Under the pieces are notes generated by a model. That model was not told where the DNA came from and did not search any database. It saw nothing but the letters and a program-made list of their open reading frames with translations. From NCBI GenBank assembly GCA_965219955.1, contig OZ244799.1, positions 2,048,001 through 2,112,000 of the forward strand: 64,000 nucleotides of DNA, read 5' to 3'. The first letter of the stretch is position 1; the number at the start of each line of letters is the position of its first letter. A program made the position numbers and the translations under genes. This document shows positions 7,190-54,330 of the stretch, piece after piece. Source of the stretch: a bacterium. GTDB taxonomy: Bacteria > UBA8248.

Positions 7190-8545
7190 CTACGCGCTTT
7201 CTCGAACATACTCTAAAACCGTCTCTGCGGCTTTATCCCCGCTTCGCACCGCTCCTTCTACGGTGGCCGGCAAACCTGTGCGAGTCCAATCTCCAGCAAG
7301 AAAAAAACCCTCAATCGGTGTTCTGGTATCTAACCGGTAATTTTGCTCCGCCACCCCGTTCGCCCAGGTAGCGGCGCGCTCCCGCACCACCAAAATATCT
7401 CGAATACGGTTACGGGGAATCATGCGATTCAAGCAATCCCTCGCAGACGACTCGATGATCGACCGCTTCTCAGATGCGATGGAATCCTCCGCCCCGGCCA
7501 ATAGACATACCAGGTTTTCCGCACATTTCCCGCCAGTTTCAAGTCGAAACAACCAGTCCCACTCCTCACCCACTATTGCCTCAAAAGGAGGCCCCTCATC
7601 CGGTTCTTCAAGCCAGAAATATGCGCTGGCGATAGGCCCGGGGCGTAGTTTTCCCAGATTCGAAAAAAGTGATTGCTGACCGAGTTCGCTGCCTAGCAAT
7701 CTGCCCAAAACGTCGGGTGGCACGGCGGAAATGACTGCGGCTGCGGGTAAAGTCTCTCGCTCCCTTACCATCACACCGTTCATTTTTGAATCATTGACCT
7801 CAAAACCGACTGCGGGTTGCTGAAGCCTCACCTCTCCACCAAGGTGCCGGATGCGTTGGGCCGCTCTGTTCGCCCACAGCGTACCCAATGCCTTCATCGG
7901 CACCCCCAAGGCGGCTCCCTTCGGCCCATCGGCAAAGGCTTCCCGAATCACCGCCTTGAACAATTCCGCACTCCCCAGTTCCAAAGGCAAGTTCAACACC
8001 GCGCGTGCAAACGGCTCCCAAAACCAGCGCACCGCCTCATTCTTCTGGCCAAGGTCCTCCAGCATGTCACTCATGGATTCATCCGGGTTCTCATCGCCCG
8101 ATTTGGAAACAATCTTCGAAAGACCTCTCAAAAGATTTATTTTTTCCAAAAAGCGGGGTCCACGCCATTTGAGCAAGCCTTGAAGTTGCGCAAAAACCCC
8201 TCCTCCCTCTGGAAATGACAACTGCGTCCGTCGGGTCGACCCCGCTTTCCGAATACGGTAGCCCACTTCCAGGGAAGGGGAGAAAAAAATATCATCGGCG
8301 GCGCCCACTCTTTCCAACAATGAGCGCAATGCCGGATTGGCCGCCATGAACAAATGCGGGCCCCAGTCCAACTCCATGTCCGTGGATGAATGCTTGAAAC
8401 TGCGCGCCCGGCCACCGAGAAACTTCCCGGCCTCGAGCACCACAACCTTGACGCCAGATTCGGCGAGGCGCAAAGCGGCGGACAGGCCCGCTGCGCCGGC
8501 TCCGATAATGATGACCGGCCTCTCGGATCCGCCCAGCTCAGACAT
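7190..8545 (-). CDS. hpnE: Hydroxysqualene dehydroxylase HpnE
   Basis: GAGAAGL FAD motif, GGRARSF, LAGDWT.TGLPATVEGAVRSG; directly follows the hpnC/hpnD fusion. Confidence 0.85.
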   Translation of the reverse strand: MSELGGSERPVIIIGAGAAGLSAALRLAESGVKVVVLEAGKFLGGRARSFKHSSTDMELDWGPHLFMAANPALRSLLERVGAADDIFFSPSLEVGYRIRKAGSTRRTQLSFPEGGGVFAQLQGLLKWRGPRFLEKINLLRGLSKIVSKSGDENPDESMSDMLEDLGQKNEAVRWFWEPFARAVLNLPLELGSAELFKAVIREAFADGPKGAALGVPMKALGTLWANRAAQRIRHLGGEVRLQQPAVGFEVNDSKMNGVMVRERETLPAAAVISAVPPDVLGRLLGSELGQQSLFSNLGKLRPGPIASAYFWLEEPDEGPPFEAIVGEEWDWLFRLETGGKCAENLVCLLAGAEDSIASEKRSIIESSARDCLNRMIPRNRIRDILVVRERAATWANGVAEQNYRLDTRTPIEGFFLAGDWTRTGLPATVEGAVRSGDKAAETVLEYVRESA

Positions 8546-10705
8546 CTACGCTTCCAGAAAACAGCGAAGCGCTTCTAGTAGTTTTTCCCTGGACTTCAAA
8601 GAGGGGCGATAATCCATGTGCCGAAAATCATTCTTCTCCATCTCACTCAGAAGTCTCCGATAAATTCGGCCCATGATTCTCGCGGGAAGAAGGTTCCCTG
8701 TCTTCTCGTGACTCAAGGCTTCGTTCGCTCCCTCGTAGTATTCACGCGCTCGATGCGCCAAGGACCGAAGAAGGCTTAAAACCTCGGAAGTATCGTTTTT
8801 ATATCTCAAATCGGAGACCGTTACGCCATATTTCTCCATTTCGCTTCCGGGAATATAAATGCGCCCTTCCTCGGCATCTTCCCAAACGTCTCTCAAAATG
8901 TTCGTCATCTGCAGCGCCCTGCCCAAACAAACGGCGTAGTCGTTGGCGAATTCCGATTTCGCCTCGAAGATGCCCAGGCACGCCAGCCCTACTGCGGAAG
9001 CCACCTTGTCACAATAATTTTCAAGGTCTGACAAATTTTCAAATCGACTATCCTCCAGATCCATCGCCACCCCGTCACAAATCGCCCGGAAATGTTCCGG
9101 CGGCAAGTCGTATTTTCTCGACGCCCATGCGAGTTCCCCGATTATCGGGTGGGATGGACTCTCCTCGCCCAACTGATCCAGCGCCTCTTTCCATTCGCGC
9201 AACGTGGTTTTCTTGCCGGATATCTCACCCGGCTCATCGGCGATGTCGTCGGCCATGCGGCAATACGCGTAAACCGCCGTGATGGCGCGCCTTTTCTCCG
9301 CCGGCAGGCTGAAAAAAGACAGATAAAAATTCGACCGGCTCGCGCGAATGAACCAGCGGCAGTATGCGCGGTTCAACCCTTCTTCGGCATGCCGATCCAC
9401 ATTGGATTCGAGTCGATAGACCGGGCGAAACACCGCGAGCAACGATTTGGCCTTATCCCGGCCATTCAAAAGCGGAGATCCCGCGCAGACGTTCCATTCC
9501 GCACGGGAAATGGCGTCAAGCGCCGCAATGCCGCCGCGCCAAATCGCGCGAAGCTCACGGCCCAATGCGCCGCGGGTGCGGTACAAAAGAGGCAGGCCCT
9601 GCCTGAAGAGGCGCTTCGTCCTTTTTATCTGAAAAACCAGGAACGCTCGAAGCTGAGGCGTCGCCGCGTCGGCAAGCAAATCATCCTCGGAGACGGAGAA
9701 TCTTTTCATCTCATCCTGAGGCATATAGATAATGCCTCGCTCGGCGTCTTCTTTCACATCTTGCAAGTGATTCGCAATCTGCAAGGCCGTGCAGATGGCA
9801 TCTGACGCGCGAAGGGCCTCTTCATCACGTATCCCGTGCAGCATGAGAACGATTCGCCCGACGGGATCCGCCGATCGGCGACAATAATCGAGCAAGGCTT
9901 CATAGTTCGGATACCGGAGGACTGTGACGTCCTGTTTGAATGCCGACAGCAAATCCCGAAAAGGCTGCAAGGGCAAATCGAATTGCTGAATCGTGTCGGA
10001 GAGCGCAATGAAAACGGCTGTTTCCGCAACTCCTTGCTGGGCCAATACGAGTTTTTCTTCCCACTCATCAAGGCGCGCAAGTCGCTCCCGGGCGGGCTCT
10101 GTCGAATCCGCGATATCATCCGCACCCCTGGCGAACGCATATACCGCGGCAACGTGCGGTCTTATCTTCGCCGGAAGCAACTTCGAGGCGACGGGAAAAT
10201 TCTCGTAGTGGCCGACTACGATTTTCATGCACTCATCATAAGCGGCGCTTAAATCAGCCTCTGAAACATTTTTTGCCTCTTTGTCTGAATCCCGTGTCTC
10301 CTCGCCATTCATGAGAGATTCTATCAACTGCGCATCCGCGGGCAGGAAATCAAACTCCCCCAATGAGGCAGGATGCACCCACTCGTGTTCCGCTACCCCC
10401 AAATTCTCCGCCACTCCGCTTTCCCACTCACAATCATAAAAGCGAAGGTGGACGTCCCTGTCTGGATAACGGTGTCGTGTCTCCCAATGAAGACGGCCAA
10501 CGCGCACATCGATCCCTAATTCTTCGCAAATTTCCCTTTGCAATGCTTCCCGGGGATTCTCGCCGTACTCAATTTTGCCGCCGGGAAACTCCCAGAAGCC
10601 CGGCATATGTCCGCCCTCCGGGCGCTGGCAGATGAGAATGCGTCCCTCGCTCCGGACAATCCCGGCAACGACGCTTAGCTCTAAAACGGCAACTTCGTCC
10701 TTCAT
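8546..10705 (-). CDS. Triple fusion: MutT-like Nudix + HpnC + HpnD (squalene synthesis)
   Basis: Nudix box GGKIEYGENPREALQREICEELG; HpnC-type HYENFPVAS/DDIAD/LQIANHLQD; HpnD-type SNFYLSF/AYCRMADDIAD/LQMTNILRD; one 719-aa ORF. Confidence 0.85.
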   Translation of the reverse strand: MKDEVAVLELSVVAGIVRSEGRILICQRPEGGHMPGFWEFPGGKIEYGENPREALQREICEELGIDVRVGRLHWETRHRYPDRDVHLRFYDCEWESGVAENLGVAEHEWVHPASLGEFDFLPADAQLIESLMNGEETRDSDKEAKNVSEADLSAAYDECMKIVVGHYENFPVASKLLPAKIRPHVAAVYAFARGADDIADSTEPARERLARLDEWEEKLVLAQQGVAETAVFIALSDTIQQFDLPLQPFRDLLSAFKQDVTVLRYPNYEALLDYCRRSADPVGRIVLMLHGIRDEEALRASDAICTALQIANHLQDVKEDAERGIIYMPQDEMKRFSVSEDDLLADAATPQLRAFLVFQIKRTKRLFRQGLPLLYRTRGALGRELRAIWRGGIAALDAISRAEWNVCAGSPLLNGRDKAKSLLAVFRPVYRLESNVDRHAEEGLNRAYCRWFIRASRSNFYLSFFSLPAEKRRAITAVYAYCRMADDIADEPGEISGKKTTLREWKEALDQLGEESPSHPIIGELAWASRKYDLPPEHFRAICDGVAMDLEDSRFENLSDLENYCDKVASAVGLACLGIFEAKSEFANDYAVCLGRALQMTNILRDVWEDAEEGRIYIPGSEMEKYGVTVSDLRYKNDTSEVLSLLRSLAHRAREYYEGANEALSHEKTGNLLPARIMGRIYRRLLSEMEKNDFRHMDYRPSLKSREKLLEALRCFLEA

Positions 10706-10720
10706 CCCATCTCCATGAGC

Positions 10721-11554
10721 TTAACCCTGCGCAGCCTCAGGCTCCATATCATCCGGCAACCGTCTCAAGACACTGGAAAACACGATGGGTTCCGCCATGG
10801 GTACCGCCTTGGACAGTTCTTTTTCATCTGCAAAATACTCGCCCGGCAGGACCAATCCCGGCATCCGCAACTCGACCGAATCCTTTGAGAACGGCCATGG
10901 GGATATTTCCAGATCATCGGTGTTTGCGGTTTTCACTTTCAACCCACCCTGAATCAAGGGGTGGACTGCGGCATCGGGCGGGGTAATTTCCGGCGCCCGG
11001 CACGCCAACAGGGATAATGTATCGCAAACCCCGAGCAAAGACACGGAATTTTCGATCGCATCTACGTGCTTCGGCTCAATCAGGGCGTCCAACTCTTTCT
11101 GCCGTTTCGATTCAGCGTGAATGAACCCGTTCAGCACCTTGGAAACTTCCAGCGGGGCGCCTCTTCTCCCACCTGCTGCGAGCGAAGAGAAGTGGAGGCT
11201 GACCAAATATCCGGAAAACGGATGGAAGGAAGCGCAAGAATCGATACCCTTCGACCATATTTCCACCGCTTTGTCCGCCGTGATGCCGAAAAAACTGTAA
11301 GGCAGTTTCGTCAGCGCATCCCACCTCGGGGTGGCGTCCGAGCGGCACCACCCGACGTCATGATTGTCGATGGCGAACAAGACTTTCTCTGTGAGTTCAT
11401 CCGGCGGTGAGGGTAGCGATTCAATGCCTATCCAATTTCGCGCAATCGTACCCGCGGCCCGGGCGTGGTCATGTTGAGAGATGAGACGAACATGGTTATC
11501 TCGCGGACAAACAATCATTTGAAACACCAAAAAACGGCGGAGAATACTTTCCAA
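10721..11554 (-). CDS. DUF3891 family protein
   Basis: ISQHDHA, HDVGW, SLHF, PWPF motifs; true start may be the ATG of MIVCPR. Confidence 0.7.
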   Translation of the reverse strand: MESILRRFLVFQMIVCPRDNHVRLISQHDHARAAGTIARNWIGIESLPSPPDELTEKVLFAIDNHDVGWCRSDATPRWDALTKLPYSFFGITADKAVEIWSKGIDSCASFHPFSGYLVSLHFSSLAAGGRRGAPLEVSKVLNGFIHAESKRQKELDALIEPKHVDAIENSVSLLGVCDTLSLLACRAPEITPPDAAVHPLIQGGLKVKTANTDDLEISPWPFSKDSVELRMPGLVLPGEYFADEKELSKAVPMAEPIVFSSVLRRLPDDMEPEAAQG

Positions 11555-11737
11555 AACCGAAGAATCTCCAGGTCCAAGCCTGAAAGTATTTTATTTCGCC
11601 GATGAAAAATGTAACAACCGCCATTGCGGCAAACAAGAAAATTCAACATCCACTTGAACAAACGTGTGCAAAACACATAATTTTGCTACAAGTCAGTATA
11701 TATTCTTGTCCTGGAAATAAGGAAATCGCGCCAAATC

Positions 11738-13174
11738 ATGAATCGAAAAAATTTCCCTCAGGATCCCGGTTCAGTCGGCCTCACGAAAACACGGACCATC
11801 AAGCTTCCGGAGCCGTTTCGGACCGATTCCGGCGAAACATTGCCTGAAATCCAGGTGGCATATGAGACATACGGCGAACTCTCCCCAAATGCCGATAATG
11901 CCGTTTTGGTCATCCATGCGCTTACGGGCGACGCGCACGCAGCCGGCTTCCACAGCCCCGACGATCCGCGTCCGGGCTGGTGGGACCCGATGATCGGCCC
12001 CGGCAAGGCCATCGATACCCGAAAATACTTCGTCGTCTCCTCAAACAACCTGGGGGGATGCTCGGGCACCACGGGGCCCGCTTCGATCAACCCCGCTACG
12101 GGCAGAGCGTACAACACCGGCTTTCCCGTCACCACGGTGGAGGACACCGTTCGCGTCCACAAGCTGCTTCTCGATCATCTGGGCGTAAAACGCCTCAAAA
12201 CGGTCATCGGCGGCTCGCTCGCCGGGATGCAGACCCTGGAATGGGGCCTGCGCTACAGCGATATCTGCGACTCCGTCATTCCGGTCGCGGGCGCCGCCCG
12301 CCTGGATCCGATGGGCATCGCATGGGACAAAATCGCCCGCAGGGCCATCACGGCGGACGGCGACTGGAATGACGGCGACTACGCCGCCGGCCAGGGACCA
12401 CGCAAGGGCCTCAGCGCGGCGCGCATGCTGGCCCACATCACCTACCTGAGCCGGGGAATCATGTGGGAGAAATTCGGCCGCGAGATCAGGGACAAGGACA
12501 AAATGCTGGAGGATATCGCCTCGCGCTTCGAGGTGGAGAGTTACCTCGATCACCAGGGGGACAAATTCGTCGATCGCTTCGACGCGAACTCGTATCTGTA
12601 TATCTCCCGCATGATGGACTTATACGACGCCTCCCTGGGCTTCGAGAGCCTCGAGGCCTCGCTGTCCCGGCTGAAAACCAAATGCCTGCTCGTATGCTTC
12701 ATATCCGATTGGCTCTTCCCGCCGGAGAGAAGCATGGAGATCGCCCAGATTCTCCAGAAACTCAGGCATGAAGTGGAGTTGCACACGGTGGAGTCCACCT
12801 ACGGGCACGACGCGTTTCTGGTCCAATACGACAAGCTCACCGAGATCGTCGGCGGCTTTCTCGAAAGACTCGAAAACGGCGGCCCGATCGGCATCAACGC
12901 GGCTCCCATACCCCGGGGCTGCAAGCGGCTGGTTCTTTCCGTGCCGGGTCATCTCGTTGAGAAACCCGTTTTGTGGGAACTCGGCCGTAAATACTCGTTT
13001 TCCATCAACATCATGAGGAGCGAGCTGGACGCCCAATCGGGGTGGCAGGTTTGCGAATTCGACGGAAGCGAGGAGGAGATCGCACAGGCCGTGACGGAAC
13101 TCCGGGATATGGGCGTGTGGGTCGACCCCGGAGGGCATGACGCCATCGACCACGACCGCGCCGAAGTGGTATAA
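11738..13174 (+). CDS. metX: Homoserine O-acetyltransferase with C-terminal NIL domain
   Basis: HALTGD, GWWDPMIGPG, GGSLAG nucleophile, SDWLFP, GHDAFL; extra ~80-aa tail (KPVLWELGRKY...INIM...GW...FDG.EEEI..A...L...GV) resembles NIL. Confidence 0.88.
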   Translation: MNRKNFPQDPGSVGLTKTRTIKLPEPFRTDSGETLPEIQVAYETYGELSPNADNAVLVIHALTGDAHAAGFHSPDDPRPGWWDPMIGPGKAIDTRKYFVVSSNNLGGCSGTTGPASINPATGRAYNTGFPVTTVEDTVRVHKLLLDHLGVKRLKTVIGGSLAGMQTLEWGLRYSDICDSVIPVAGAARLDPMGIAWDKIARRAITADGDWNDGDYAAGQGPRKGLSAARMLAHITYLSRGIMWEKFGREIRDKDKMLEDIASRFEVESYLDHQGDKFVDRFDANSYLYISRMMDLYDASLGFESLEASLSRLKTKCLLVCFISDWLFPPERSMEIAQILQKLRHEVELHTVESTYGHDAFLVQYDKLTEIVGGFLERLENGGPIGINAAPIPRGCKRLVLSVPGHLVEKPVLWELGRKYSFSINIMRSELDAQSGWQVCEFDGSEEEIAQAVTELRDMGVWVDPGGHDAIDHDRAEVV

Positions 13175-13248
13175 ACCAGAAAATTGCCGCGCACGTATAT
13201 TCACAGGTACATTCAAGAGATTCGATACAAACCAGACGGAGGCACGCC

Positions 13249-13881
13249 ATGAGTGAGTTGAAAGAACCGATCGTTGTGGTGAAATACTCGGACTACACCT
13301 GACCATTTTGCTATGTCGCCACCGTGGGTGGCACGCCCGTGATCGAAGAAGACCCCGACGTCGTCGTCGAGTGGGTCAGTTGGGAGGGGAGACCCCCCGG
13401 CCAGGAGTTCGCCGGCTACTCGCCGGAGCAGAAACAGGAAAGTTACGAGAACAACCACAAACCTCTCGCCGAGAAGTACGACGTGCCCATCCGGGTGGCG
13501 GGTGGCGACTACCGCACCACGAACCTCCACATGGCCACCTATTACGCCCGCGACAAGGGGAAGTTCAAGGAATTCCGGAATCGCTGCTACAAGGCCCGCT
13601 GGGAGGACGACCTGAATCTCGAGGATTTGGACGTCATCGCCGGTCTCGGTCAGGATGTCGGCCTGGACGGTGAGGAAATCAAGGCCGTCATCGCCGAGGG
13701 ACGCTACATCGGCGCGCTCCACAGCCAGCGCGCCCAGGGAAAAGGGTTGGGCATCTTCGGCATCCCCACGTTCGTGGTGGAGGGGAAGCTCTTCTGGGGC
13801 AAAGACGTCATCGACGACGTCAAGGACGAGGTCGCGCGCGTGAAGCAGGAGCGCATCGAGAAGGAAAAAGAAGAGAGCTAG
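13249..13881 (+). CDS. DsbA/FrnE (HCCA isomerase-like) thioredoxin-fold protein, probable selenoprotein (UGA 13300-13302, U-P-F-C), 210 aa
   Basis: GGAGG RBS, then MSELKEPIVVVKYSDYT-U-PFCYVATV, in frame with track ORF 13324-13881 (GIFGIPTFVVEGKLFWGKD). Matches D-Y-x-C-P-F-C-Y. Confidence 0.85.
13315..13334 (+). promoter_or_regulatory. Candidate SECIS hairpin
   Basis: GT-C-GCCACC-GTG-GGTGGC-AC; loop G 22 nt after UGA. Confidence 0.6.
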
Positions 13882-14479
13882 CCTTCGCCTCATCCGCATG
13901 AACCGGGCGTCCGCTCCCGCGGGGTCGCCGGACCACCCCGTTCCGGGGCCGGGCGGCCCGGGCGGATGGGTTCGCCTCGCGGGGAAACGCGGGCAATTGC
14001 GCGCAAATGCGGGGCTGCGAAAAAACTTTTTCATTCGATGAATTTCGATAAATCATTCACTACCTGCTTTATGTTATCCCGGTAACTGTTTGAATAAATA
14101 TAAAATATCATTTTTCGTCCTGTTCGATAAATTTGCAGGAATTTATCGAAAAATACCTTGAATTTATCCAATTTTACGGGAAATATCATTATTTCCATTT
14201 CCCCGCCCGCCCCGGCGTCCATGAGCGCCGTGGCCCGGGCCGGGTGAAGAACGCGGACAGACGCCCCTATCCTCTCTCGAATGCCCGGTGCCATGAGAAA
14301 ACCTCCTCTCGCCTCCGCGTCGGCCCGCAAGCGGGAGAGCTTTCCCCCGCGCGGCGCGCACGATACACCGCTTCGGGGTCCGGGGGAGAACGGCAAATGC
14401 GCGCAAATGCGCAGACGCCCGGCCCCCTCGCCGAACCTCCCTTGTCAGAAGGGCTTTTTTGTCCCCCGTCGGGAGTGTC

Positions 14480-15240
14480 GCCTTTTCCCCCTGACAAGGA
14501 GTTGTTGAAAAATTCCTAATTTCGTGATTCCACATATAGAGCCGACCATGGAGGGATGAAACTTTACTCCTCCCTTGTGGAGCGCCAATCAATCACTCCC
14601 CCCTTGAGGGGGCTGTTGAAAAACCCCGATGAGGGAGGGTTTGTTGTAGGGGCCGCATACATGCGGCCCATTGTTGGAACGGGAAAAACCAGGGTCGCAT
14701 ATATGCGACCCCTACAATCTCCGCACAAGGTGTTGGTGCAGGGGTACCATACACGCGGCCCTACGGGTTCATCTTGCGTCGGGTGAAGGGCATCCTTCGA
14801 TACGCGGTTTCACCGCTACTCAGGATGAAGGAGATGTGAGGACTTTTTCAACAGCCCCTTGAGGGGGGGGAGTCGAAGAGGTCGAGCCTTGGCGAAGGCC
14901 GATTCGGTGGGGGGTGAATCGCGTTTTACCCGCTCCGAATTATACCCCCCACCAGTTCGCTTTCGGGCTTACGCCCTCAGCTCACTGACTCCCCCTCAAG
15001 GGGGGAGTGGTTCCTTTCTTCTCGGTTGCCGATGACACTCAAGGGGGGAGGGAATCCCGATCATCGAATTGTTCGCCGTAGGGACAACCCTCCGTGGTTG
15101 TCCTTCGTCGGGGCGTCAGGACGACAGGCGCGGAGGCCTGCCCCTGCAAAACCAACCCCCTACAACCCTCCGTCAGGGGCGCTTTCAGCCCTCCCCTGCG
15201 CCAAGGTGTTTCTCGTTCGCCTTTTTGCCCTTTCATCCCC
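14480..15240. repeat. Mosaic cluster of palindromic repeats (GTAG-type REPs, CCCCCTTGAGGGGG units, MITE ends)
   Basis: GTAGGGGCCGCATACATGCGGCCC, GTAGGGACAACCCTCCGTGGTTGTCC and ACTCCCCCTCAAGGGGGGAGT units recur at 17.7, 24.5, 36.6, 44.2 and 60.6-61.4 kb. Confidence 0.8.
14609..14858. mobile_element. MITE (15-bp TIR GGGGCTGTTGAAAAA, TSD TTGAG) with REP cargo
   Basis: Perfect TIRs; TTGAG at 14604-14608 and 14859-14863; an uninterrupted copy of the target palindrome is at ~24521-24549. Confidence 0.8.
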
Positions 15241-15290
15241 GATTCGATAAGCTGTTTCATCTGCATCCACTATCTTGAGGAGAGAACCCG

Positions 15291-16883
15291 ATGGCGCAGT
15301 TCGATGGTGTTGTGATCGGCGCGGGACATAACGGCCTGGTGTGCGCGGCGTATCTCGCCCGGGCGGGGCTGAAAATCGCCGTTCTGGACAGCGAACCCGA
15401 AATCGGCGGCGGCTCGAGCACCAGGGAATTCCTGCTGCCCGGCTACCAGTCCAACATGCACGCGAATTTCTTCATCGGTCTGGACGATTTTCCAATCGTC
15501 AAGGACCTGGAACTGAATAAATACGGGTTCAAGTGGCTCACCCCCGACGTGCAGCACGCCGCGCTGTACCGCGACGGCACGGCGGTTCTGCTTCACCGGG
15601 ATGCTGAGAAAAGCGCAGCTTCCATCTCGCGATTTTCGAAAAAAGACGCAGAATCATACGCCTACCTTCACCGGCGATTCGCCGTGGAACTCGCCCCTCT
15701 CATGCGCAGTTTCCTGTTTCATCCACCGCTGCCTCCGGAGGAAATCGTCTCCCGGATGGAGGGCGACGCAGGCCGGGAGATCCTGAGCTTTGCGAAAATG
15801 TCGATTTTCGAGGCCATCGAATCGCATTTCGAGCATCCCAAAATGCGGGCCTTGTTCTTCCTGTTCTCCCACGCCATCACGGTGGAGAACGCGCCGGGCA
15901 CGGGTATCTTTCTCCCGAGCCTGTTCTCCACCCACACGACGCTCGGCCTCCCGGTGGGGGGCGCCATCCAACTGCCCCTGGCGCTCGAGCGCATCGTCAC
16001 CCAGAACGGAGGCGTCGTCCTGAGAAGCACCCACGTGCGCGAGGTGATTCGGGAAAACGGCCGCGCGACGGGCGTGATGCTCGATGGCGGAGAGAAGATG
16101 ATGGCGACGCAATTCGTCGCTTCGAGTCTCAACGCGCCGGCATCCATCAAAATGGCGGGAGAAGACGCGTTCCCCGATGAGGTCAACGAGAAGGTGCGAA
16201 ACTGGGACTGGGGCTTCCATTCCCTGAGCACGCTGCATCTCGCCCTGGCTGAAATCCCGCGATATGCCGCGGAGGATTTCGACCCCGACGTAGGCGAGGC
16301 CTACAACATCATCTTCGGGGCGGACTCCGGCGAGGAGATGGCCGAGAACACCGAAGAGCGCAGAAACGGCCTCATCCCGTCGAACCCGATGGGCAACGGT
16401 TCATGCAACAGCCAGCACGACCCCTCCTATGCGCCCCCGGGCGGCCACGTCGCTTTCTGGTGGCCGGGCGCGCCCTATGAGCTCAAGGACGGCGGCCCCC
16501 GGAAGTGGGATGAGATAAAAGAGGAATACACCGAACGCCTCGTGGACGTATGGCGGGGCTACGCTCCGAACCTCACGCCGGACAACGTCCGCGCGGCGAA
16601 GCTCTACACGCCGCTCGACGTGGAACGCGGGAACAAGAACATGATCCGCGGCGGCGTGCGCATGGGGGCGTACATTCCCGAACAGTTGGGGATCAACAGG
16701 CCCCATCCCCTGCTCTCCGGCATGCGGACGCCTCTGGAGGGGTTCTATCTGTGCAGTTCGAGCTGCCAGGGGGGTGGTCTGAACGGGGCGCCCGGCTACA
16801 ACGCCGCCGGCGTGATCGCGGATGATTTGGGCGTCGAGAAATGGTGGGAGCCGCTTCCTGCGCCTGCGGCGCCCGCAGGCTAG
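15291..16883 (+). CDS. Phytoene dehydrogenase-like FAD oxidoreductase (COG1233 type)
   Basis: GAGHNGLVCAAYLARAG; C-terminal RTPLEGFYLCSS...GGG..GAPGYNAA. Confidence 0.85.
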   Translation: MAQFDGVVIGAGHNGLVCAAYLARAGLKIAVLDSEPEIGGGSSTREFLLPGYQSNMHANFFIGLDDFPIVKDLELNKYGFKWLTPDVQHAALYRDGTAVLLHRDAEKSAASISRFSKKDAESYAYLHRRFAVELAPLMRSFLFHPPLPPEEIVSRMEGDAGREILSFAKMSIFEAIESHFEHPKMRALFFLFSHAITVENAPGTGIFLPSLFSTHTTLGLPVGGAIQLPLALERIVTQNGGVVLRSTHVREVIRENGRATGVMLDGGEKMMATQFVASSLNAPASIKMAGEDAFPDEVNEKVRNWDWGFHSLSTLHLALAEIPRYAAEDFDPDVGEAYNIIFGADSGEEMAENTEERRNGLIPSNPMGNGSCNSQHDPSYAPPGGHVAFWWPGAPYELKDGGPRKWDEIKEEYTERLVDVWRGYAPNLTPDNVRAAKLYTPLDVERGNKNMIRGGVRMGAYIPEQLGINRPHPLLSGMRTPLEGFYLCSSSCQGGGLNGAPGYNAAGVIADDLGVEKWWEPLPAPAAPAG

Positions 16884-17281
16884 GTCTCCGCGCCGGGGAT
16901 CATCACCACCGCTTCGATTTCCACGATGTCGTCCTGGTTCAGCCTGCTCACTTCCACGATGGTGCGCGTGGGCAGGTTCGGCCCGAAGTATTCCTCATAC
17001 AGCCGGTTGATTGTCGGGCGGTGGGCATCCATGTCCCGCACGTAGACGACGGTGGAAACGAACGTGGCGAGCGACCCGCCCGCCGCCTCCGCAATGGCTT
17101 TCAGGTTCTCGAAAGTTCTTCTGGTACGCGCCTCGATGGTTCGCTCGACGAGTTCCCCGGAATCCGGGTCGATGCCGCGCTGGCCGGCGATGAACAACAG
17201 GTTCCCCACGCGGCGCGCCTGGACGAAGGGTCCGGTGGGCGAAGGGGCCTGCTCTGTCTGGATGGTTTGAGGCGACTCCAA
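16880..17281 (-). CDS. RidA (YjgF/YER057c/UK114) family protein
   Basis: AP.P.GPFVQA, LFIAGQ, PTRT.VEVSRL...VEIEAV; TTG start at 17281. Confidence 0.88.
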   Translation of the reverse strand: MESPQTIQTEQAPSPTGPFVQARRVGNLLFIAGQRGIDPDSGELVERTIEARTRRTFENLKAIAEAAGGSLATFVSTVVYVRDMDAHRPTINRLYEEYFGPNLPTRTIVEVSRLNQDDIVEIEAVVMIPGAET

Positions 17282-17349
17282 GGCGTCTCCCCGGTTTGCA
17301 AGCAGGGAATAAGCTGCGCGATTGGTTTTCCTGCCGCGTGGCGCCGCTA

Positions 17350-17571
17350 TTATTTCTTGCCTTTCGGCAACTCCGCCGGAAAAGCGATTTTGAGCCATTG
17401 CTGCGTCAGTATGGTCGCGGCGTTCTCGTCTCTTCCGGGAATGAACGCGATGGGTTCTTTGGGCTGAGCGCCCTCCTGATCGAGCATATAGACGTCGACG
17501 CCGAACCCGTACAGGTCATGATCGCGGGTTTCGAGATTGTACTTCACCCCATTGTTCGTCAGTTGATTCAT
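17350..17571 (-). CDS. Small hypothetical protein
   Basis: 73-aa ORF with protein-like composition and AAAGGA RBS; no family recognised. Confidence 0.55.
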   Translation of the reverse strand: MNQLTNNGVKYNLETRDHDLYGFGVDVYMLDQEGAQPKEPIAFIPGRDENAATILTQQWLKIAFPAELPKGKK

Positions 17572-18212
17572 CTGGGATCATCCTTTCAAGCTCACTGGCG
17601 AAAAACTCGACGATGAGAGTTCCAACTCCCGCTATCATAGCCGATGGCTTGAGCCCCCGTAAAGTTTGGAGGCAGTCTCAAACGCATCCGTTCTTGGGGT
17701 TGTTGGAAAAGCCTGGATAAACGAGGGTTTGACTCGTCCGATAAATGAGCAAGATTCACTCCCCCTTGAGGGTCTGGCTTCCCGAGGGGAAAGCCAGACG
17801 GTGAGGTAAGGGCGCAAGCCCGCAAGCGAACCGGTGGGGGGTATAATTCGGAATGGCGATAAAACGCATTTTACCCCCCACCGCATCAGCCTTCGCAAAA
17901 AACGCTCGGCTTCTTCGTCTGGCTTTCCCCTCGGGAAGCCAGACCCTCAAGGGGGGAGTGATTCTTCTCTCTCGTTGGTTGGCAATGTTGTTCAAGGGCA
18001 ATGTCCGCAGCCGCGCAGATGAGCTGAATTCCGAGCGAGAAGCCTTTTTCAACAGCCCCGACAAGGGGGGTAGGGGAGTTGGTTTTCGGGGTGAGCGGGC
18101 GGGAGACGCAAAAGAACCTCATCCCGAGTAGGCCCGAAGGGCCGTATCGAGGGAGCGCCCCTTCGACAGGCTCAGGACAGGCCCTTCGATACGCCCTTCG
18201 ACAAGCTCAGGA

Positions 18213-49612: not shown

Positions 49613-49687
49613 TCCGGCGTAGCTCAACGGCAGAGCAATCGGCTGTTAACCGATGGGTTGTAGGTTCGAATCCTACCGCCGGAGCCA
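49613..49687 (+). tRNA. tRNA-Asn (GTT)
   Basis: TCCGGCG acceptor stem, ATCGG-CTGTTAA-CCGAT anticodon arm, GGTTCGAATCC, CCA. Confidence 0.95.
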
Positions 49688-49711: not shown

Positions 49712-50062
49712 TTACGCTCCATCCGCTTTCGAGACGAAATCCGAGAGCGCCTCTTTCACGAGGGCGTTCATGCTGCGGCCCCTCAAGGACGCCATGCGGG
49801 CGAGTTTCTCATGAAGGTCCGCACCCGGCCGCACGTTGAACGAACCGCTGTAAGGCTTGTTCGGCTCGATTCCTTCCGCCTCGCACGTTTCGAGATAATC
49901 GCTCACCGAATCCTGAAATGCCTTCTTCAACCCTTTGGCGGTTTCGGCTTCGTATGTAATCAAATCCCGCACGTGCAGCACCTTGCCGTGCAAGGTCTCG
50001 CTTTCCTCGTCGTATTCAACGGATCCGAGATAATTTTTGAATTTCAATACCGCTCCGATCAT
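49712..50062 (-). CDS. hicB: HicB family antitoxin
   Basis: Y.GSVEY, DLITYE, DYLE.C, KPYSGSFNVR..LH, SMN. Confidence 0.9.
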   Translation of the reverse strand: MIGAVLKFKNYLGSVEYDEESETLHGKVLHVRDLITYEAETAKGLKKAFQDSVSDYLETCEAEGIEPNKPYSGSFNVRPGADLHEKLARMASLRGRSMNALVKEALSDFVSKADGA

Positions 50063-50126
50063 CTTTGGCCCCTTTCCATCCCCGTGATCAAATCTAATGT
50101 CCCGTATTTCAGCATTCGGATGAACC

Positions 50127-50381
50127 TCACAACAAACCGCCTTCGTCCAACTTCTTTCTTACCTCGCGTATGATATATGGCTTCAACTTGTCTTCGGCAT
50201 GGGGCTGGTGAAGGAAAATCCGGGGAGCCAACGCATGAATGAATCTTCGCCGGGAGCCACCCGTTCTTCCTCCCGTTGACTGCCGATAGCCCAGCCCCTC
50301 CAATAACTGAACCAATTCGTTCCATGTAAAATTCTTTGGATTCTTCCTGAATTTATCCAGCAGCTTCTCGTGTTTACTCAT
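50127..50381 (-). CDS. hicA: HicA family toxin
   Basis: FTWNEL..LL..LGY, GGSRRRF, LHQPH, LKPY. Confidence 0.9.
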   Translation of the reverse strand: MSKHEKLLDKFRKNPKNFTWNELVQLLEGLGYRQSTGGRTGGSRRRFIHALAPRIFLHQPHAEDKLKPYIIREVRKKLDEGGLL

Positions 50382-50420
50382 CGTTCTCTTGTCTGAATAT
50401 CATAGGTTCAAAGACAAATA

Positions 50421-50483
50421 GCAACCAATATTCAGTTGCATTATAAAGTGAACTCAAGGAAATGCAACTGTTTTTTCGTTGCA
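50421..50483. promoter_or_regulatory. Two GCAAC-N9-GTTGC inverted repeats upstream of hicAB (probable operators)
   Basis: 50421-50439 and 50464-50482. Confidence 0.55.
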
Positions 50484-50596
50484 AATGACAAGCCGAACCA
50501 TAAGGTATGAATGGAACACAAACTCGGGAGGAAAAAGACTTCACGAGGGGTGATCAGCCCCAGAAAAGGGCACCTACCCCCTTCCAGCGAATCTCC

Positions 50597-51847
50597 TCAA
50601 GCGCCGCTCTTCGCCTTCTCGAGCGTAGCGACGTTCACCGGGTGCGCGTTGCGGCGGCGCTTGTCGACGCGGATGCGCAGGCGCGCGGCCCCGGCGAGGC
50701 TCAGGCCCGCTTCACGCAGCTCGCTCCGGCTGAACCCCTTGCCGGGCCGCCAGTTCCCGCGCGAGTCTCTCACGAGAGGGAGGAACCCGTTTTCCACGGG
50801 GGAAGTTTCCGGGGGTTCGTCCGTCTGCTCCGGGGGCGATTCAGTGAAGACCTCGCTGTGTGATGCAGCCTCATCTTCTCGAGACGGATCAGGCCGGGGC
50901 GGTTCAGACTCATCCGGCGACGCTTCCGGGGCTGATGCCGCCAGGGGTTCCCCCACCTCCTGAACGATATTGTCAGCAGGTTCTGATTCGCTCTCCAGAG
51001 GTATTTCCGGCTCGGGCGCCGTCGCCTCTGCGGCGCTCTCCTCGACAACCGGGACAGCTTCGTCTTGCCCTTCATCCGAATCAGGCTCACCCGGCGCATC
51101 ACCTGATCCCGGCTCCGTCAGCAACTCCAGGTCGAGACCATATTCCTCGAAAGGGGCGGCTTCACGAGACGGCTCGGGCGCATCCGGCGACTCGTTTGCG
51201 CTCGCCGCGGCCAGGGGCTCCTCATCTTCCGGGACGGCATCTCCGATTGCCTGCGCCTCGCTCTCCTGCGGAATTTGCGGCTCAGATGCAGTCGCCTCCA
51301 CGGGGCTATCCGCCGCGTCCGTGGCGGCTTCCTCATGTTCCGAAACGATATCGGCGACAGCTTCCGGCTCGCTCTCCCGGGGGATTTCCGGCTCGGCGGC
51401 AATCGCCTCCGTTACGCTTTCCGCTACGACCGGGAATGCTTCGACATCCTGCCCGGACGTCTCAGCCTCATCCGGCGATTCGCCTGCTTCCAGCTCCCCC
51501 AGCGGCTCCAGGTCGAGGCCATATTCCTCAAAAGGCGCGGCTTCGCGAGGCGTTTCAGCCGCATCCGGCGGCTCACCCGAGGCCGGCGCCGTCAATGATT
51601 CCACGGCGGGGGCAGGATCGTTTTCCCGGGCATCCACACCGTTCGTCAAATCCGTGCGCGGCGGCTCATCGGCAGCCAGCAGTTCGAGCTCCATATGAGA
51701 GCCGTAGCTTTTGCCCTCCGTATCTTCCGTCGAATACGGAACGCCCGGTTCGATGGCCGTGGGAGGCGGAATTTCGTGCCCCTCACCCGGTTTGGCAGGT
51801 GCGGAATCCTTGCGCCGCGCGATACGGCTCAAAAATTTTTTCTTCAT
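50597..51847 (-). CDS. Acidic repeat protein with a C-terminal ribosomal protein eL13 (L13e)-like domain
   Basis: Last ~60 aa: PLVR...WRPGKGFSRSELREAGLSLAGAARLRIRVDKRRRNAHPVNVATL; the rest is E/A/P-rich with a duplicated REAAPFEEYGLDLE module. Confidence 0.75.
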   Translation of the reverse strand: MKKKFLSRIARRKDSAPAKPGEGHEIPPPTAIEPGVPYSTEDTEGKSYGSHMELELLAADEPPRTDLTNGVDARENDPAPAVESLTAPASGEPPDAAETPREAAPFEEYGLDLEPLGELEAGESPDEAETSGQDVEAFPVVAESVTEAIAAEPEIPRESEPEAVADIVSEHEEAATDAADSPVEATASEPQIPQESEAQAIGDAVPEDEEPLAAASANESPDAPEPSREAAPFEEYGLDLELLTEPGSGDAPGEPDSDEGQDEAVPVVEESAAEATAPEPEIPLESESEPADNIVQEVGEPLAASAPEASPDESEPPRPDPSREDEAASHSEVFTESPPEQTDEPPETSPVENGFLPLVRDSRGNWRPGKGFSRSELREAGLSLAGAARLRIRVDKRRRNAHPVNVATLEKAKSGA

Positions 51848-52074
51848 GATGATACCGCCCTCTTTCGGAAAAACTCACGAGTCCATAAACCATCGTCGAG
51901 TAAATACAGGGGGCGGTAAGGGAGGTCAGAAAACTTACGGGTTAAGACTAACGATAACAAAGACTTGGTGTCAAGCCGCGAATCACGGAGCGCGCTGACG
52001 GGTTTTTTCAATCAGCCAAAACACGCGAAACCGGGAAGGCCGTGGGGGAATCAATCGTTCAAACCGGATACGGA

Positions 52075-52392
52075 TCACCCATCCTTTTGATGGATGGTTT
52101 GCAAGTCTCGCCCGAGATCTTCGAGGTCATATTGGACAGGCGTTTTTCGAGTACGCGCGTAGTCCATCATCTCCCACAAAGAAACTCCCGCATCGCGCGC
52201 CGCCCGCGCAAGAGTGACCTTGCCGTCCCCGTAGAGCCGGGAATAATGCTCCAGCTTCCACTGCCGGACCGCGTTCGACAGCAACCTTCGCAGGGTGGTC
52301 GAACGGTCGGTCTGCTCCACATTCTCGATGAGTTCCAGTTCGCGGACCAGTTCCAGAGGGAGCCTCGCGCCCACCATGCGCTCTTTTTTCAT
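52075..52392 (-). CDS. UPF0175 family protein (putative antitoxin)
   Basis: RHH-like N-terminus, then Y.DGKVTLARAARDAGVSLWEM...Y..EDL; ATGA-coupled to the PIN gene. Confidence 0.8.
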   Translation of the reverse strand: MKKERMVGARLPLELVRELELIENVEQTDRSTTLRRLLSNAVRQWKLEHYSRLYGDGKVTLARAARDAGVSLWEMMDYARTRKTPVQYDLEDLGRDLQTIHQKDG

Positions 52393-52904
52393 CTCTTCGC
52401 CTCTCTTGCGATTCTCAACACTTCCGCCACGACGGCCGGGGAGAGCCACAGGACCCGGGTGATGTCTTGAATAGTAACTTCCAAATCTTCCAAATCAATA
52501 TGTTCTCGCAAGTATGCTTCCAACAATACGCCGATGGTGCCCAAGTGTTCTATTCCCGCGGCGGTGGCCACGCTTCGGGCCTCTTTGTCGTCAACGATCA
52601 GTTGCAAGCCCCGCGCACCCGCAAGCGCGATAGATTCAGACTCCCCTAGATCGAGCCGGGATCGGCCACTTAGTCGTCGCATCAAGCTTTGTTCTTCGGT
52701 GGTCAAGCGAACAACCCGCAGCCAGCCGTCTTCCGCAGCGGATTCGAGTTGCTCTATACCCAAGGCGCGAACAACTCTACCAGTGTCGATTGTCTCCTCC
52801 TTCACGACAGGCCCTGTTATCACCTCACCATAAAGTTCGTTCAAGAGCCTCAGGCGGCCAAGTTTGGCAAGGACGATCAAAGGGGAGGCGTCGGCTACGA
52901 TCAT
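52389..52904 (-). CDS. DUF3368/PIN-domain putative toxin
   Basis: IVADASPLI, LDLGESESIALA, VDDKEAR, GTIGVL. Confidence 0.88.
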   Translation of the reverse strand: MIVADASPLIVLAKLGRLRLLNELYGEVITGPVVKEETIDTGRVVRALGIEQLESAAEDGWLRVVRLTTEEQSLMRRLSGRSRLDLGESESIALAGARGLQLIVDDKEARSVATAAGIEHLGTIGVLLEAYLREHIDLEDLEVTIQDITRVLWLSPAVVAEVLRIAREAKR

Positions 52905-53033: not shown

Positions 53034-53789
53034 CTACCCGCCCGCCAGTTCCTCGGCGGTGCGGATGATGAGTTCGATGTCCGCATCCCGCGAGAGCCGG
53101 TGGCCGCCGTCCTTGACGAGGGTCAGCCGTACGTCGTCGCTTTTGAGGACCTCGGACAGCTTCAAAGATACCTCCCAGGAGATCGTCTCATCGGCCATTC
53201 CGTGGATGAGGCGCACGGGGCAGGTCACATCGATCTCACCGCGCAGGAGCAGATGGTTCTCCGCCTCATCGAGCAGTTTTCTTGTGATGGGATACGGCTC
53301 CCCCCAGATGTTGGGCGCGTGCAAGACGTATCCCCGCTCGTCGAGTTCACGCTCCATCTCTTCGGTGAGCCTGTGTTTTTTGAAACCATCCGTGAAATCG
53401 GGACCCGACGCCACGCCCACGAGACCCTTCACGCGTTCGGGCCGGGCGAGAGCAACGAGCAGCATCATCCACGCGCCCATGCTCGATCCAACGAGCACCT
53501 GGGGCCCGCGGGCGACTTCATCGAGTATGGCGAGGGCGTCCTCCGCCCATTCCCCGATGGTCCCCTCCTCGAATTTTCCGGAAGATTCCCCGTGTCCGCC
53601 GTAATCGAAGCGAACGTAGGCGCGCCCGATTTTCCGGCAATGGGCTTCGAGTGCGCTCGCCTTCGTCCCGCTCATGTCCGAGCGGAAACCGCCCAGGAAC
53701 ATCAGGCCGGGCGATTCGCCCTCAAGCCGGAACCAGGCGAGCGAAGTCCCGTTTTCTCTATGCAGAAAACTCGAATTTGAGTCGGACAT
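53034..53789 (-). CDS. Alpha/beta hydrolase (ABHD10-like)
   Basis: GGFRSDM.GTKA, GSSMGAW, GGHRLS. Confidence 0.9.
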   Translation of the reverse strand: MSDSNSSFLHRENGTSLAWFRLEGESPGLMFLGGFRSDMSGTKASALEAHCRKIGRAYVRFDYGGHGESSGKFEEGTIGEWAEDALAILDEVARGPQVLVGSSMGAWMMLLVALARPERVKGLVGVASGPDFTDGFKKHRLTEEMERELDERGYVLHAPNIWGEPYPITRKLLDEAENHLLLRGEIDVTCPVRLIHGMADETISWEVSLKLSEVLKSDDVRLTLVKDGGHRLSRDADIELIIRTAEELAGG

Positions 53790-53796
53790 CTTGGTT

Positions 53797-54330
53797 TCAG
53801 GAGGAATTTTCGAGATGGTCGAGCAGCCGGGCGGGGACGCCCCGGATGGCGGCCTCCGCCGCCTCGTCGACGCAGTTCCCATCCTCGTCGAACACCTTGT
53901 GGACGCTCCCGACCGAAGCCTGACCGGGCAGAACCTCCCCGCCGACGTGGGTGAGAATGTGCCTCAGGTGCGCGAGGGCGTTGTCCGCGCTCGGCCCCAT
54001 CGCCACGCCCAGGATGGCGATGGTCTTGCCCTCGAACGTGGAGGGATAGCCCAGGTTGTCTATCGCCAGCTTGAGCGTGCTGCTGATACTGCCGTGATAC
54101 TCGGGCGTCGCGATGAGTATGCCCGCCGCTCCCGTCACGAGACTTTTCAGCATTTCGGGGTCTTTCGACTCGCTCGGCTCACCGGGCAGGGGCAAATCCA
54201 GTTCGCCCAGATGAACGCGGTTGATCTCGAAATCGCCCTTCCCCAACTCATCGAGCGCGAGCGCGAGGGCCTTATCGGTATTGTTCTGCGGCCTGCGGCT
54301 GCCGCCGAAGACAAGGATGTAGGGGGTCAT
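53797..54330 (-). CDS. NADPH-dependent FMN reductase
   Basis: GGSRR...NT, TPEYHGS.S..LK.AID. Confidence 0.9.
   Translation of the reverse strand: MTPYILVFGGSRRPQNNTDKALALALDELGKGDFEINRVHLGELDLPLPGEPSESKDPEMLKSLVTGAAGILIATPEYHGSISSTLKLAIDNLGYPSTFEGKTIAILGVAMGPSADNALAHLRHILTHVGGEVLPGQASVGSVHKVFDEDGNCVDEAAEAAIRGVPARLLDHLENSS

Follow-up and report, generated by a model that had tools for sequence, protein, structure and literature searches.

Why should a bacterium encode a protein that ends like eL13, a ribosomal protein that, to our knowledge, has no place in bacterial ribosomes? The question is raised by a minus-strand gene in a 64,000-nucleotide stretch of the UBA8248 assembly GCA_965219955.1 (contig OZ244799.1, positions 2,048,001 to 2,112,000; hereafter the window), whose 416-residue product carries a long acidic region ahead of a basic C-terminal domain (CTD). 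A preliminary description, made from the letters of the window, had recognized an L13e-like signature in this product. We found that the CTD is a true eL13-fold homolog and that its closest relatives by score outside its own family are the C-termini of proteins encoded beside DruE-type helicases. Our best explanation is that the window protein is a body-less, stand-alone relative of these C-termini that binds nucleic acid in a defense or mobile-element setting. We infer the function and hold the explanation as a whole tentatively, at slightly below an even chance.

An eL13-fold domain on an acidic bacterial protein

The features of the gene are listed below by position in the window, with residues numbered along the protein.

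50597..51847, minus strand: acidic eL13-tail gene ("short form", subfamily A), 416 aa plus stop, ATG start
51858..51862, minus strand: GAGGG, a Shine-Dalgarno-like site judged from sequence, 10 nt 5' of the ATG
51809..51847, minus strand: N-terminal basic segment MKKKFLSRIARRK, aa 1-13, a candidate amphipathic helix
51734..51775, minus strand: motif EIPPPTAIEPGVPY, aa 25-38, with P27 and P29 invariant across the family alignment
50804..51805, minus strand: acidic, proline-rich, low-complexity region, aa 15-348, with a duplicated 127-aa module and 37-aa sub-repeats
51677..51706, minus strand: motif copy 1, YGSHMELELL, aa 48-57, a conserved column block in the family alignment
51500..51523, minus strand: motif copy 2, YGLDLEPL, aa 109-116, inside APFEEYGLDLEPL, with Y109 and E114 invariant
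51119..51142, minus strand: motif copy 3, YGLDLELL, aa 236-243, inside APFEEYGLDLELL
50945..51193: DNA repeat copy 1, 249 nt
51326..51574: DNA repeat copy 2, 73% identical to copy 1 and 381 nt away
50600..50803, minus strand: C-terminal eL13-fold domain (CTD), aa 349-416, comprising a beta-hairpin, two short helices, an Arg-rich loop, and a C-terminal helix
50648..50665, minus strand: DKRRRN loop, aa 395-400, family-invariant and corresponding to the D-x-R-R core of L13e

The C-terminus of the window protein reads ...GKGFSRSELREAGLSLAGAARLRIRVDKRRRNAHPVNVATLEKAKSGA and has in common with L13e the core signature G-[KR]-G-F-S-x-x-E-L ... D-x-R-R-x-x-x-H-x-x-N. Profile searches bore out the reading of this basic end as an L13e core. 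Pfam PF01294 (Ribosomal_L13e) matched the whole protein at 30.2 bits against a cut-off of 24.9 (E 5.1e-7) and, in a check of the kind proposed with the original reading for the last 65 aa, the last 77 aa alone at 34.0 bits. NCBIfam NF008914, which represents archaeal L13e, matched at 51.2 bits for the whole protein (E 7.2e-14) and at 55.4 bits for the CTD (E 3e-15). A sequence search of the Protein Data Bank returned 67 distinct sequences at E ≤ 1, and the 60 shown were all eL13, with a best E of 1e-6.

We then compared structures using an AlphaFold (AF2) model that covers the last 77 residues; it drew on 50 sequences and had a predicted local distance difference test (pLDDT) score of 83.9. 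All of the top 50 Foldseek matches to the CTD model were ribosome or pre-ribosome entries, with TM-scores (TMq) of up to 0.71. VIA-align, which is independent of Foldseek, compared the model with 48,161 chains and retrieved 8 eL13 chains at Z 7.1-9.1, the next chain having Z 2.3. The best structural match was eL13 of Pyrobaculum calidifontis, with a root-mean-square deviation of 1.6 Å over 64 residues and Z 8.9. Since L13e relatives made up the alignment behind the model, the fold result is partly dependent on the sequence result. By hidden Markov model (HMM) and by structure, the CTD is a true homolog of the eL13 fold.

Sharing a fold and core signature with eL13 does not make the window protein a ribosomal protein. 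The PF01294 match spans aa 366-402, which correspond to profile positions 62-98 of 180 only, and neither the window protein nor its CTD reached the NF008914 equivalog cut-off (51 vs 96 bits for the protein). Whereas eL13 is a small, basic, stand-alone protein of archaea and eukaryotes, the domain here is the tail of a 416-aa bacterial protein with an isoelectric point (pI) of 4.08, and by this context the window protein is not a ribosomal protein. Its genome is bacterial, as the preliminary description had it: bacterial bL9 is present, and eL21 had no match in the window genome. L13e is described as patchy even among Archaea in part of one published account (PMC3353972).

The remainder of the protein is of a different character. 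The 348 residues N-terminal to the CTD contain 27% D+E, 5% K+R, and 14% P, in agreement with the long acidic low-complexity region noted previously, and the pI of 4.08 for the whole protein stands against 11.8 for the CTD and 11.8 for the first 20 aa. A module had also been reported as duplicated 381 nt apart, at positions 51127 and 51508; both positions fall inside copies of YGLDLE[LP]L, one in each copy of the module, and the 381-nt spacing equals a 127-aa offset in the protein. The third copy, YGSHMELELL, is looser and lies near the N-terminus, for a total of three Y-G-x-[DE]-L-E-x-L motifs in the acidic region. Tandem Repeats Finder reported no array in the gene, the repeats being dispersed at 381 nt, and an ESM Atlas search with residues 1-348 gave no usable match. 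The sequence has no signal peptide-like hydrophobic N-terminus. A promoter scan found no sigma-70-like sites and terminator-like sites were as frequent as expected (2 observed vs 2.2 expected, one at 51977-51962 on the minus strand, 5' of the gene); we gave weight to neither. Two antisense open reading frames (ORFs) on the plus strand, 50860-51849 (329 aa) and 50970-51698 (242 aa), overlap the acidic repeat region. Similar antisense ORFs recur in related loci, as expected of a GC-rich repeat, and were treated as non-coding; the minus-strand frame is favored because the features of its protein are conserved.

A search of 5.8 billion proteins recovered 97 relatives, 228-728 aa in length, with 71-100% identity over the C-terminal 77 residues. 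Genome records that hold relatives are labeled Nitrospinota, Nitrospinaceae, or "bacterium", and a few of the proteins, from metagenome-assembled genomes of Nitrospinota or Rhodospirillaceae, are already named "ribosomal protein L13e". The bare observation is therefore already known to annotation pipelines through that label, as the preliminary description had anticipated. Among 60 related genomes searched, the eL13-like domain occurs in 18 of 22 genus-mates and in none of the 38 genomes from other genera. One of the 18 carriers, G007, holds only a longer type of protein that is described below. The family alignment conserves the basic N-terminus, an EIPPP-x-AIEPGVP motif, the Y-G-x-[DE]-L-E-L-L motifs, and a nearly invariant CTD, while the length of the acidic region differs among orthologs (proteins of 230-541 aa). 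The CTD had a ratio of nonsynonymous to synonymous substitution rates (dN/dS) of 0.20 across 190 pairs with a median dS of 0.57, and the N-terminal motif had a ratio of 0.31 across 87 pairs. The short-form family is under purifying selection.

Relatives encoded beside DruE-type helicases

We searched the CTD against 1.84 billion representative sequences with phmmer, which gave 288 matches at E ≤ 1e-3, and surveyed the 150 best matches together with the window protein (151 rows). A large, conserved central body with an array of immunoglobulin (Ig)-like domains was carried by 61 of the 151, while 58 were archaeal-type proteins shorter than 150 aa, 12 were acidic with the motif, and 20 were fragments or other proteins. 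Five clusters of the small proteins were looked up, and the four that were named were all archaeal (Thermococci, Hecatellales, Thorarchaeota). The domain ends no more than 30 residues from the C-terminus in all 51 proteins of at least 480 aa. A survey of bacterial matches and their architectures had been proposed in the preliminary description, and it identified most bacterial carriers as Ig-array proteins of 500-1100 aa.

These bacterial long forms consist of a basic N-terminal helix, a disordered linker, an Ig-like array, and the eL13-like CTD. No other Pfam domain was found in the 27 long forms scanned, and PADLOC had no family for the 8 that were scanned with it. A model of the G007 long form (pLDDT 81.4) contains an N-terminal helix, a disordered linker of about 90 aa, a beta-rich stretch at aa 157-589, and the CTD. 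Foldseek matched its beta-rich region to multi-Ig proteins (S-layer Sap, titin, neurofascin, complement C3), at TM-scores that are low, as expected for flexible arrays.

We inspected five loci, three in unrelated genomes and two in genus-mates. In each, a helicase of 1387-1425 aa (cut by the contig end in L040) is encoded immediately downstream of the long form or overlaps it. The helicases of loci L025 and L026 contain DEAD, Helicase_C, and MZB/DUF1998 domains and match PADLOC DruE1/DruE3 at E of about 1e-150 to 1e-160; a Pfam scan of both found no nuclease domain. A long form next to a nuclease-less DruE-type helicase fits a Druantia III-B-like arrangement as described in published work. Full-length long forms are sporadic, occurring in 3 of 120 genomes of one phylum.

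The CTD ties the short and long forms together. Profile-profile alignment with hhalign gave a probability of 99.5% (E 6e-23) over 68 CTD columns, and phmmer matches of the CTD to long forms reached 66.9 bits. At their N-termini, the long forms likewise carry a basic, amphipathic-looking helix, which is followed by a disordered linker with a median length of 196 aa; this linker has at least 20% D+E in 8 of 30 scored long forms. Given this shared style of helix and linker, the short form resembles a long form stripped of its Ig-like body. The long form of genus-mate G007 even occupies the same slot beside a tRNA-Asn gene as the window gene. In contrast to the long forms, the window protein lacks the Ig-like array of about 430 aa, has neither a helicase neighbor nor a DruE/MZB helicase in its genome, and carries Y-G-x-[DE]-L-E-L-L motifs that are specific to its own family. 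A 52-row tree of 79 columns recovered the short forms as a clan (96/100) and placed 20 of 22 long forms on their side of a split (90/91) from the small archaeal-type proteins. As to the horizontal acquisition suggested in the preliminary description, a direct, separate capture from archaea by the window protein may or may not have taken place: the best tree groups it with bacterial long forms, but approximately unbiased (AU) tests rejected neither alternative. A natural reading of the domain's origin is that an archaeal L13e gene was captured by a bacterial defense-linked protein.

The long forms are not DruH, the partner of DruE in canonical Druantia. We considered the label "DruH homolog" and rejected it: E. 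coli DruH, taken from a plasmid with a Zorya II/Druantia III array and annotated as STY4851/ECs_5259 family, gave hhalign probabilities of 0.3% with the long-form profile and 0.08% with the CTD profile, in a comparison whose sensitivity is limited by the single-sequence query. A Clostridium butyricum plasmid also encodes a DruE-like helicase, whose partner likewise showed no similarity to the long-form profile. By sequence comparison, the long forms appear to be a partner family distinct from canonical DruH. Like the long forms, canonical DruH (E. coli Druantia III-A, STY4851/ECs_5259 or YjiT family) is encoded directly upstream of DruE, but it has no detectable sequence similarity to the long forms or the eL13-like CTD and is at best an analogy. 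In the portions of two preprints that concern its structure, DruH comprises an N-terminal domain, Ig-like subdomains, and a C-terminal domain that helps bind single-stranded DNA (bioRxiv 10.64898/2026.05.12.722862; 10.64898/2026.05.13.724758), the first of them placing binding between Ig5 and the C-terminal domain.

Not every long form ends in the eL13-like domain. We collected relatives of the long-form body using L026:7959-9941 and obtained 247 at E ≤ 1e-10. Precomputed annotation assigns PF01294 to 30 of the best 120 listed, and 7 of 9 sampled body relatives without a precomputed Pfam domain have a sub-threshold L13e match at the C-terminus. Others end in different domains, as follows.

P0302: Ribosomal_S17 end, aa 678-744 of 752, E 2e-30
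P0323: Ribosomal_S6 end
P0328 and P0357: Ribosomal_S5 N- and C-terminal domains at the end
P0360: NusB, then the eL13-like domain
P0367: MacB_PCD end
G009 long form (L041:4742-7132): RNA-polymerase omega/Rpb6 end, aa 715-769 of 796, E 6.5e-8, read directly in genome DNA

The P-numbered cases are metagenomic proteins known from protein sequences alone and may be fusions introduced by gene calling. Together, these ends suggest that domains from the gene-expression machinery are exchanged at the C-terminal position. The swapped domains could be baits or tethers through which a helicase-based immune system watches, or is steered by, phage factors or RNAs that target ribosomes or polymerase. The window protein would then be a free-standing bait, kept as a minimal sensor or adaptor, or as an inhibitor of incoming Druantia-like systems. 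We regard this extension as unlikely, if still worth stating, and the exchange with S17-, S6-, S5-, NusB-, and omega-like domains as a hint at what Druantia III-B-like systems bind or sense.

As far as our searches reach, three aspects are new: the link of a bacterial eL13-like domain to partners of nuclease-less DruE helicases, its C-terminal exchange with other domains resembling ribosomal and transcription proteins, and a body-less acidic offshoot fixed in one genus. Bacterial proteins with an L13e domain did not turn up in our literature searches. The main text of the YprA-family paper does not mention ribosomal, omega, or Rpb6, and two Druantia preprints do not mention ribosomal (one of them also lacks L13); supplementary tables of the paper and supplements of the preprints may list such architectures. 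The eL13-like CTD is a first recognizable domain for an uncharacterized partner of nuclease-less DruE helicases of the Druantia III-B-like kind. The label "ribosomal protein L13e" needs correction for these bacterial proteins, which are tails of a defense-linked family or its free-standing offshoots.

Possible roles of the window protein

Given that in bacteria the domain is found mostly at the end of partner proteins of an anti-phage helicase, a place among mobile and defense genes is more likely for this gene than one in the ribosome. The window protein would be a cytoplasmic protein of three parts: a short basic helix, about 330 residues of polyacidic disordered repeats, and a 68-residue basic domain of the eL13 fold. 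Its CTD would not act as a ribosomal protein and would be the same module as the long-form end, making the window protein a genus-restricted version without the Ig-like body, housed in a variable tRNA-Asn slot among toxin-antitoxin (TA) modules. On this view the CTD would bind nucleic acid, with its invariant DKRRRN loop contacting RNA or single-stranded DNA as the eL13 core contacts rRNA. This prediction rests on homology to an rRNA-binding core and on the S17-, S6-, S5-, and NusB-like domains found in the same position of other proteins. The polyanionic region may mask or tune binding by the CTD, and its repeated motifs may recruit a partner protein. The setting would be conflict among host, phage, and mobile elements, with the window protein as a sensor or adaptor, or as a competitor of full-length partners, rather than translation. 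We infer all three roles, namely nucleic-acid binding, the function of the acidic region, and the link to defense.

Acidic disordered tails are joined to basic nucleic-acid-binding domains in other proteins, examples being the acidic tail of HMGB1 and the C-terminal tip of SSB. The window protein similarly combines a polyanionic segment and a strongly basic domain in one chain, but it is not homologous to these proteins, and auto-inhibition is an analogy only. As a CTD on an acidic, disordered scaffold, it offers a ready-made minimal construct for finding the ligand of the eL13-like module in a bacterium.

Several results weigh against a defense-linked relative of the long forms. Only the CTD aligns between short and long forms with hhalign, and the likeness of their helices and linkers is a resemblance of style, not detected homology. 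The AU tests rejected neither the grouping of short forms with small proteins (p 0.385) nor that with long forms (p 0.474). A quick tree of all 151 rows, in which the short forms were nested within the long forms, was set aside as unreliable after a constrained tree reached a log-likelihood 58 higher. The window genome contains no DruE-like helicase and no MZB/DUF1998 domain, and any link to a Druantia-type system must therefore be historical or directed at incoming systems, not a local partnership. Published DruH biochemistry is not transferable to the long forms, which have no detectable sequence similarity to the E. coli protein. PADLOC has no family for the window protein; PHROGs gave no match for the window protein, its CTD, or the G007 long form; and no relative of short or long forms was found on viral contigs. 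Stable presence in most genomes of the genus would also fit a lineage-specific housekeeping role.

The rival closest to the preliminary description, which had proposed ribosome binding or an RNA-chaperone function, is a ribosome- or RNA-associated factor whose eL13-like domain docks on rRNA or structured RNA, with the polyanionic tail as a genus-specific chaperone or ribosome modulator. The fold and Arg-rich loop are indeed those of an rRNA-binding protein, the gene is under purifying selection at a fixed site in 18 of 22 genus-mates, and the S17-, S6-, S5-, and NusB-like domains that may occupy the same long-form position are all RNA binders. We nevertheless consider such a factor improbable. 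eL13 is not known from bacterial ribosomes, and the search found no copy of the gene in 4 of 22 genus-mates or in any of 38 genomes from other genera. Its place is a variable slot shared with TA modules, no translation genes are linked to it, and two paralogs in the window genome are frameshifted. With the gene found in one genus only and its closest non-family relatives beside DruE-type helicases, nothing points to the role originally proposed.

The second rival overlaps our preferred reading of a stand-alone relative of DruE partners and holds that the window protein is an anti-defense decoy. The terminal module of a DruE partner, possibly with the N-terminal helix, would compete for the ligand or the helicase and so disable Druantia III-B-like systems. 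Such a role would suit a CTD that is common to DruE partners, a paralog that lies beside an integrase, and a polyanionic region that recalls nucleic-acid mimics. It would also suit the distribution within the genus, in which no genome has both a short form and a long form with a full DruE: the short form is counted in 19 genomes, the window genome (G000) among them, and the two genomes with the latter pair (G007 and G009) have no short form. This exclusion is weak evidence, because the genomes are close kin and the counts non-independent. In addition, the gene is mostly chromosomal and stable, not obviously mobile, and has no relatives on viral contigs. We give a decoy a low probability.

A third possibility is that the gene is a decaying leftover of a former defense locus without present function. 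The window genome has no helicase partner, two paralogs are frameshifted at G-runs (one with its sequence confirmed by contigs of four runs), and repeat number is highly variable. However, the window copy is intact, and so are orthologs in 18 of 22 genus-mates. Together with a CTD dN/dS of 0.20 (dS 0.57) and motifs conserved between species, both N-terminal and Y-G-x-[DE]-L-E-L-L, this makes decay very unlikely. An effector acting inside a eukaryotic host cell by its acidic repeats and eukaryote-type nucleic-acid-binding fold is scarcely credible, as only the eukaryote/archaeon-type domain and the likeness of Y-G-L-D-L-E-L-L to eukaryotic acidic activation or sorting motifs (D-x-x-L-L) speak for it, against an N-terminus unlike a signal peptide, no secretion-system linkage nearby, and closest domain relatives that are bacterial, cytoplasmic, and defense-linked. 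We also rejected the window protein as a TA component: it has no TA-family match in Pfam or PADLOC, does not form a two-gene module of its own, and occurs without a TA neighbor in 4 loci.

The variable tRNA-Asn slot and the paralogs

The window gene lies in a slot of variable content between a tRNA-Asn gene and a hydrolase gene, which contains the following features besides the gene itself.

49613..49687, plus strand: tRNA-Asn (GTT), one boundary of the slot
49712..50062, minus strand: HicB antitoxin, variable cargo, 66.5 bits vs a cut-off of 21
50127..50381, minus strand: HicA toxin, variable cargo, 39.6 bits vs a cut-off of 27
52075..52449, minus strand: UPF0175 family antitoxin-like gene, variable cargo, 34.7 bits vs a cut-off of 27.9
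52389..52904, minus strand: PIN-like / DUF3368-like ORF, below Pfam cut-offs (DUF3368 19.0, PIN 16.4; also PIN-TPR-GreABC)
53034..53882, minus strand: alpha/beta hydrolase, the other boundary of the slot

HicA and HicB are downstream of the acidic gene, and UPF0175 and the PIN-like ORF are upstream. The preliminary description had placed the gene between two predicted RNase-type TA modules. This stands for HicAB and for UPF0175 as family assignments above their cut-offs; an RNase-type toxin is plausible but not established for the UPF0175/PIN-like module, because all PIN-like matches are below Pfam cut-offs. As called, the UPF0175 and PIN-like ORFs overlap by 61 nt. The G+C content is 0.45-0.52 over HicAB (positions 49750-50500 of the window) versus about 0.61 for the genome and 0.64-0.66 for the acidic gene. 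This low G+C fits a later insertion of HicAB into the slot. Wider neighbors of the window gene include the hydrolase, an FMN reductase, a luciferase-like oxygenase, and a TRAP transporter; neither translation genes nor a secretion system are linked to it in this neighborhood.

We compared gene order across 24 short-form loci. The order hydrolase, gene, tRNA-Asn was conserved in 16, and 2 more were cut by contig ends. Cargo varied around this arrangement: UPF0175, with or without PIN, was inserted upstream in 10 of the 24 loci, HicB, with or without HicA, was inserted downstream in 12, and 4 had no TA module at all (L009, L015, L018, L021). Genus-mates that lack the gene illustrate the variability of the slot itself, which is empty in G019 (184 nt) and filled by other ORFs in G001. 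In G015, no tRNA-Asn was found within 12 kb of the hydrolase. The slot of G009 contains a 548-aa ORF (L047:1593-3239, G009:C10) in which HNH-like Cys/His and D-G-Q-H-K motifs were seen by eye, and which may be another defense-type gene.

In G007, the long form and a DruE-like helicase lie between the same tRNA-Asn and hydrolase, in the opposite orientation to the window gene. At 7919-17720 of this locus (L026, G007:C1:2381000-2399000), the long form, annotated as a version of 625 aa, overlaps the 1425-aa DruE-like helicase. The same slot holds two or three ORFs without Pfam matches.

A second subfamily, with the CTD sequence ...IRFDKRRRNTHPVNVASLEQ..., is sited elsewhere, and the window genome (G000) has two copies of it.

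L002, G000:C1:1942903-1946016: paralog interrupted by a single G-run frameshift, with a HicB remnant after it
L003, G000:C1:1851203-1854316: paralog interrupted by a single G-run frameshift, with a HicB remnant after it
L043:8313-9482 (G000:C1, about 1850312-1851481): P4-type tyrosine integrase with Arm-DNA-binding, SAM-like, and catalytic domains

At the L002 frameshift site, contigs of four DNA runs, all on one sample, agree with the assembly, which may itself have been built from these runs. L002 and L003 are either pseudogenes or genes read only through a frameshift. A search for tRNA-Asn fragments near the paralogs found no attachment-site-like repeat, and no tRNA was found near the integrase. 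The integrase is complete, and one of the frameshifted paralogs lies about 0.4 kb downstream of it. A TonB-dependent receptor gene is located downstream as well.

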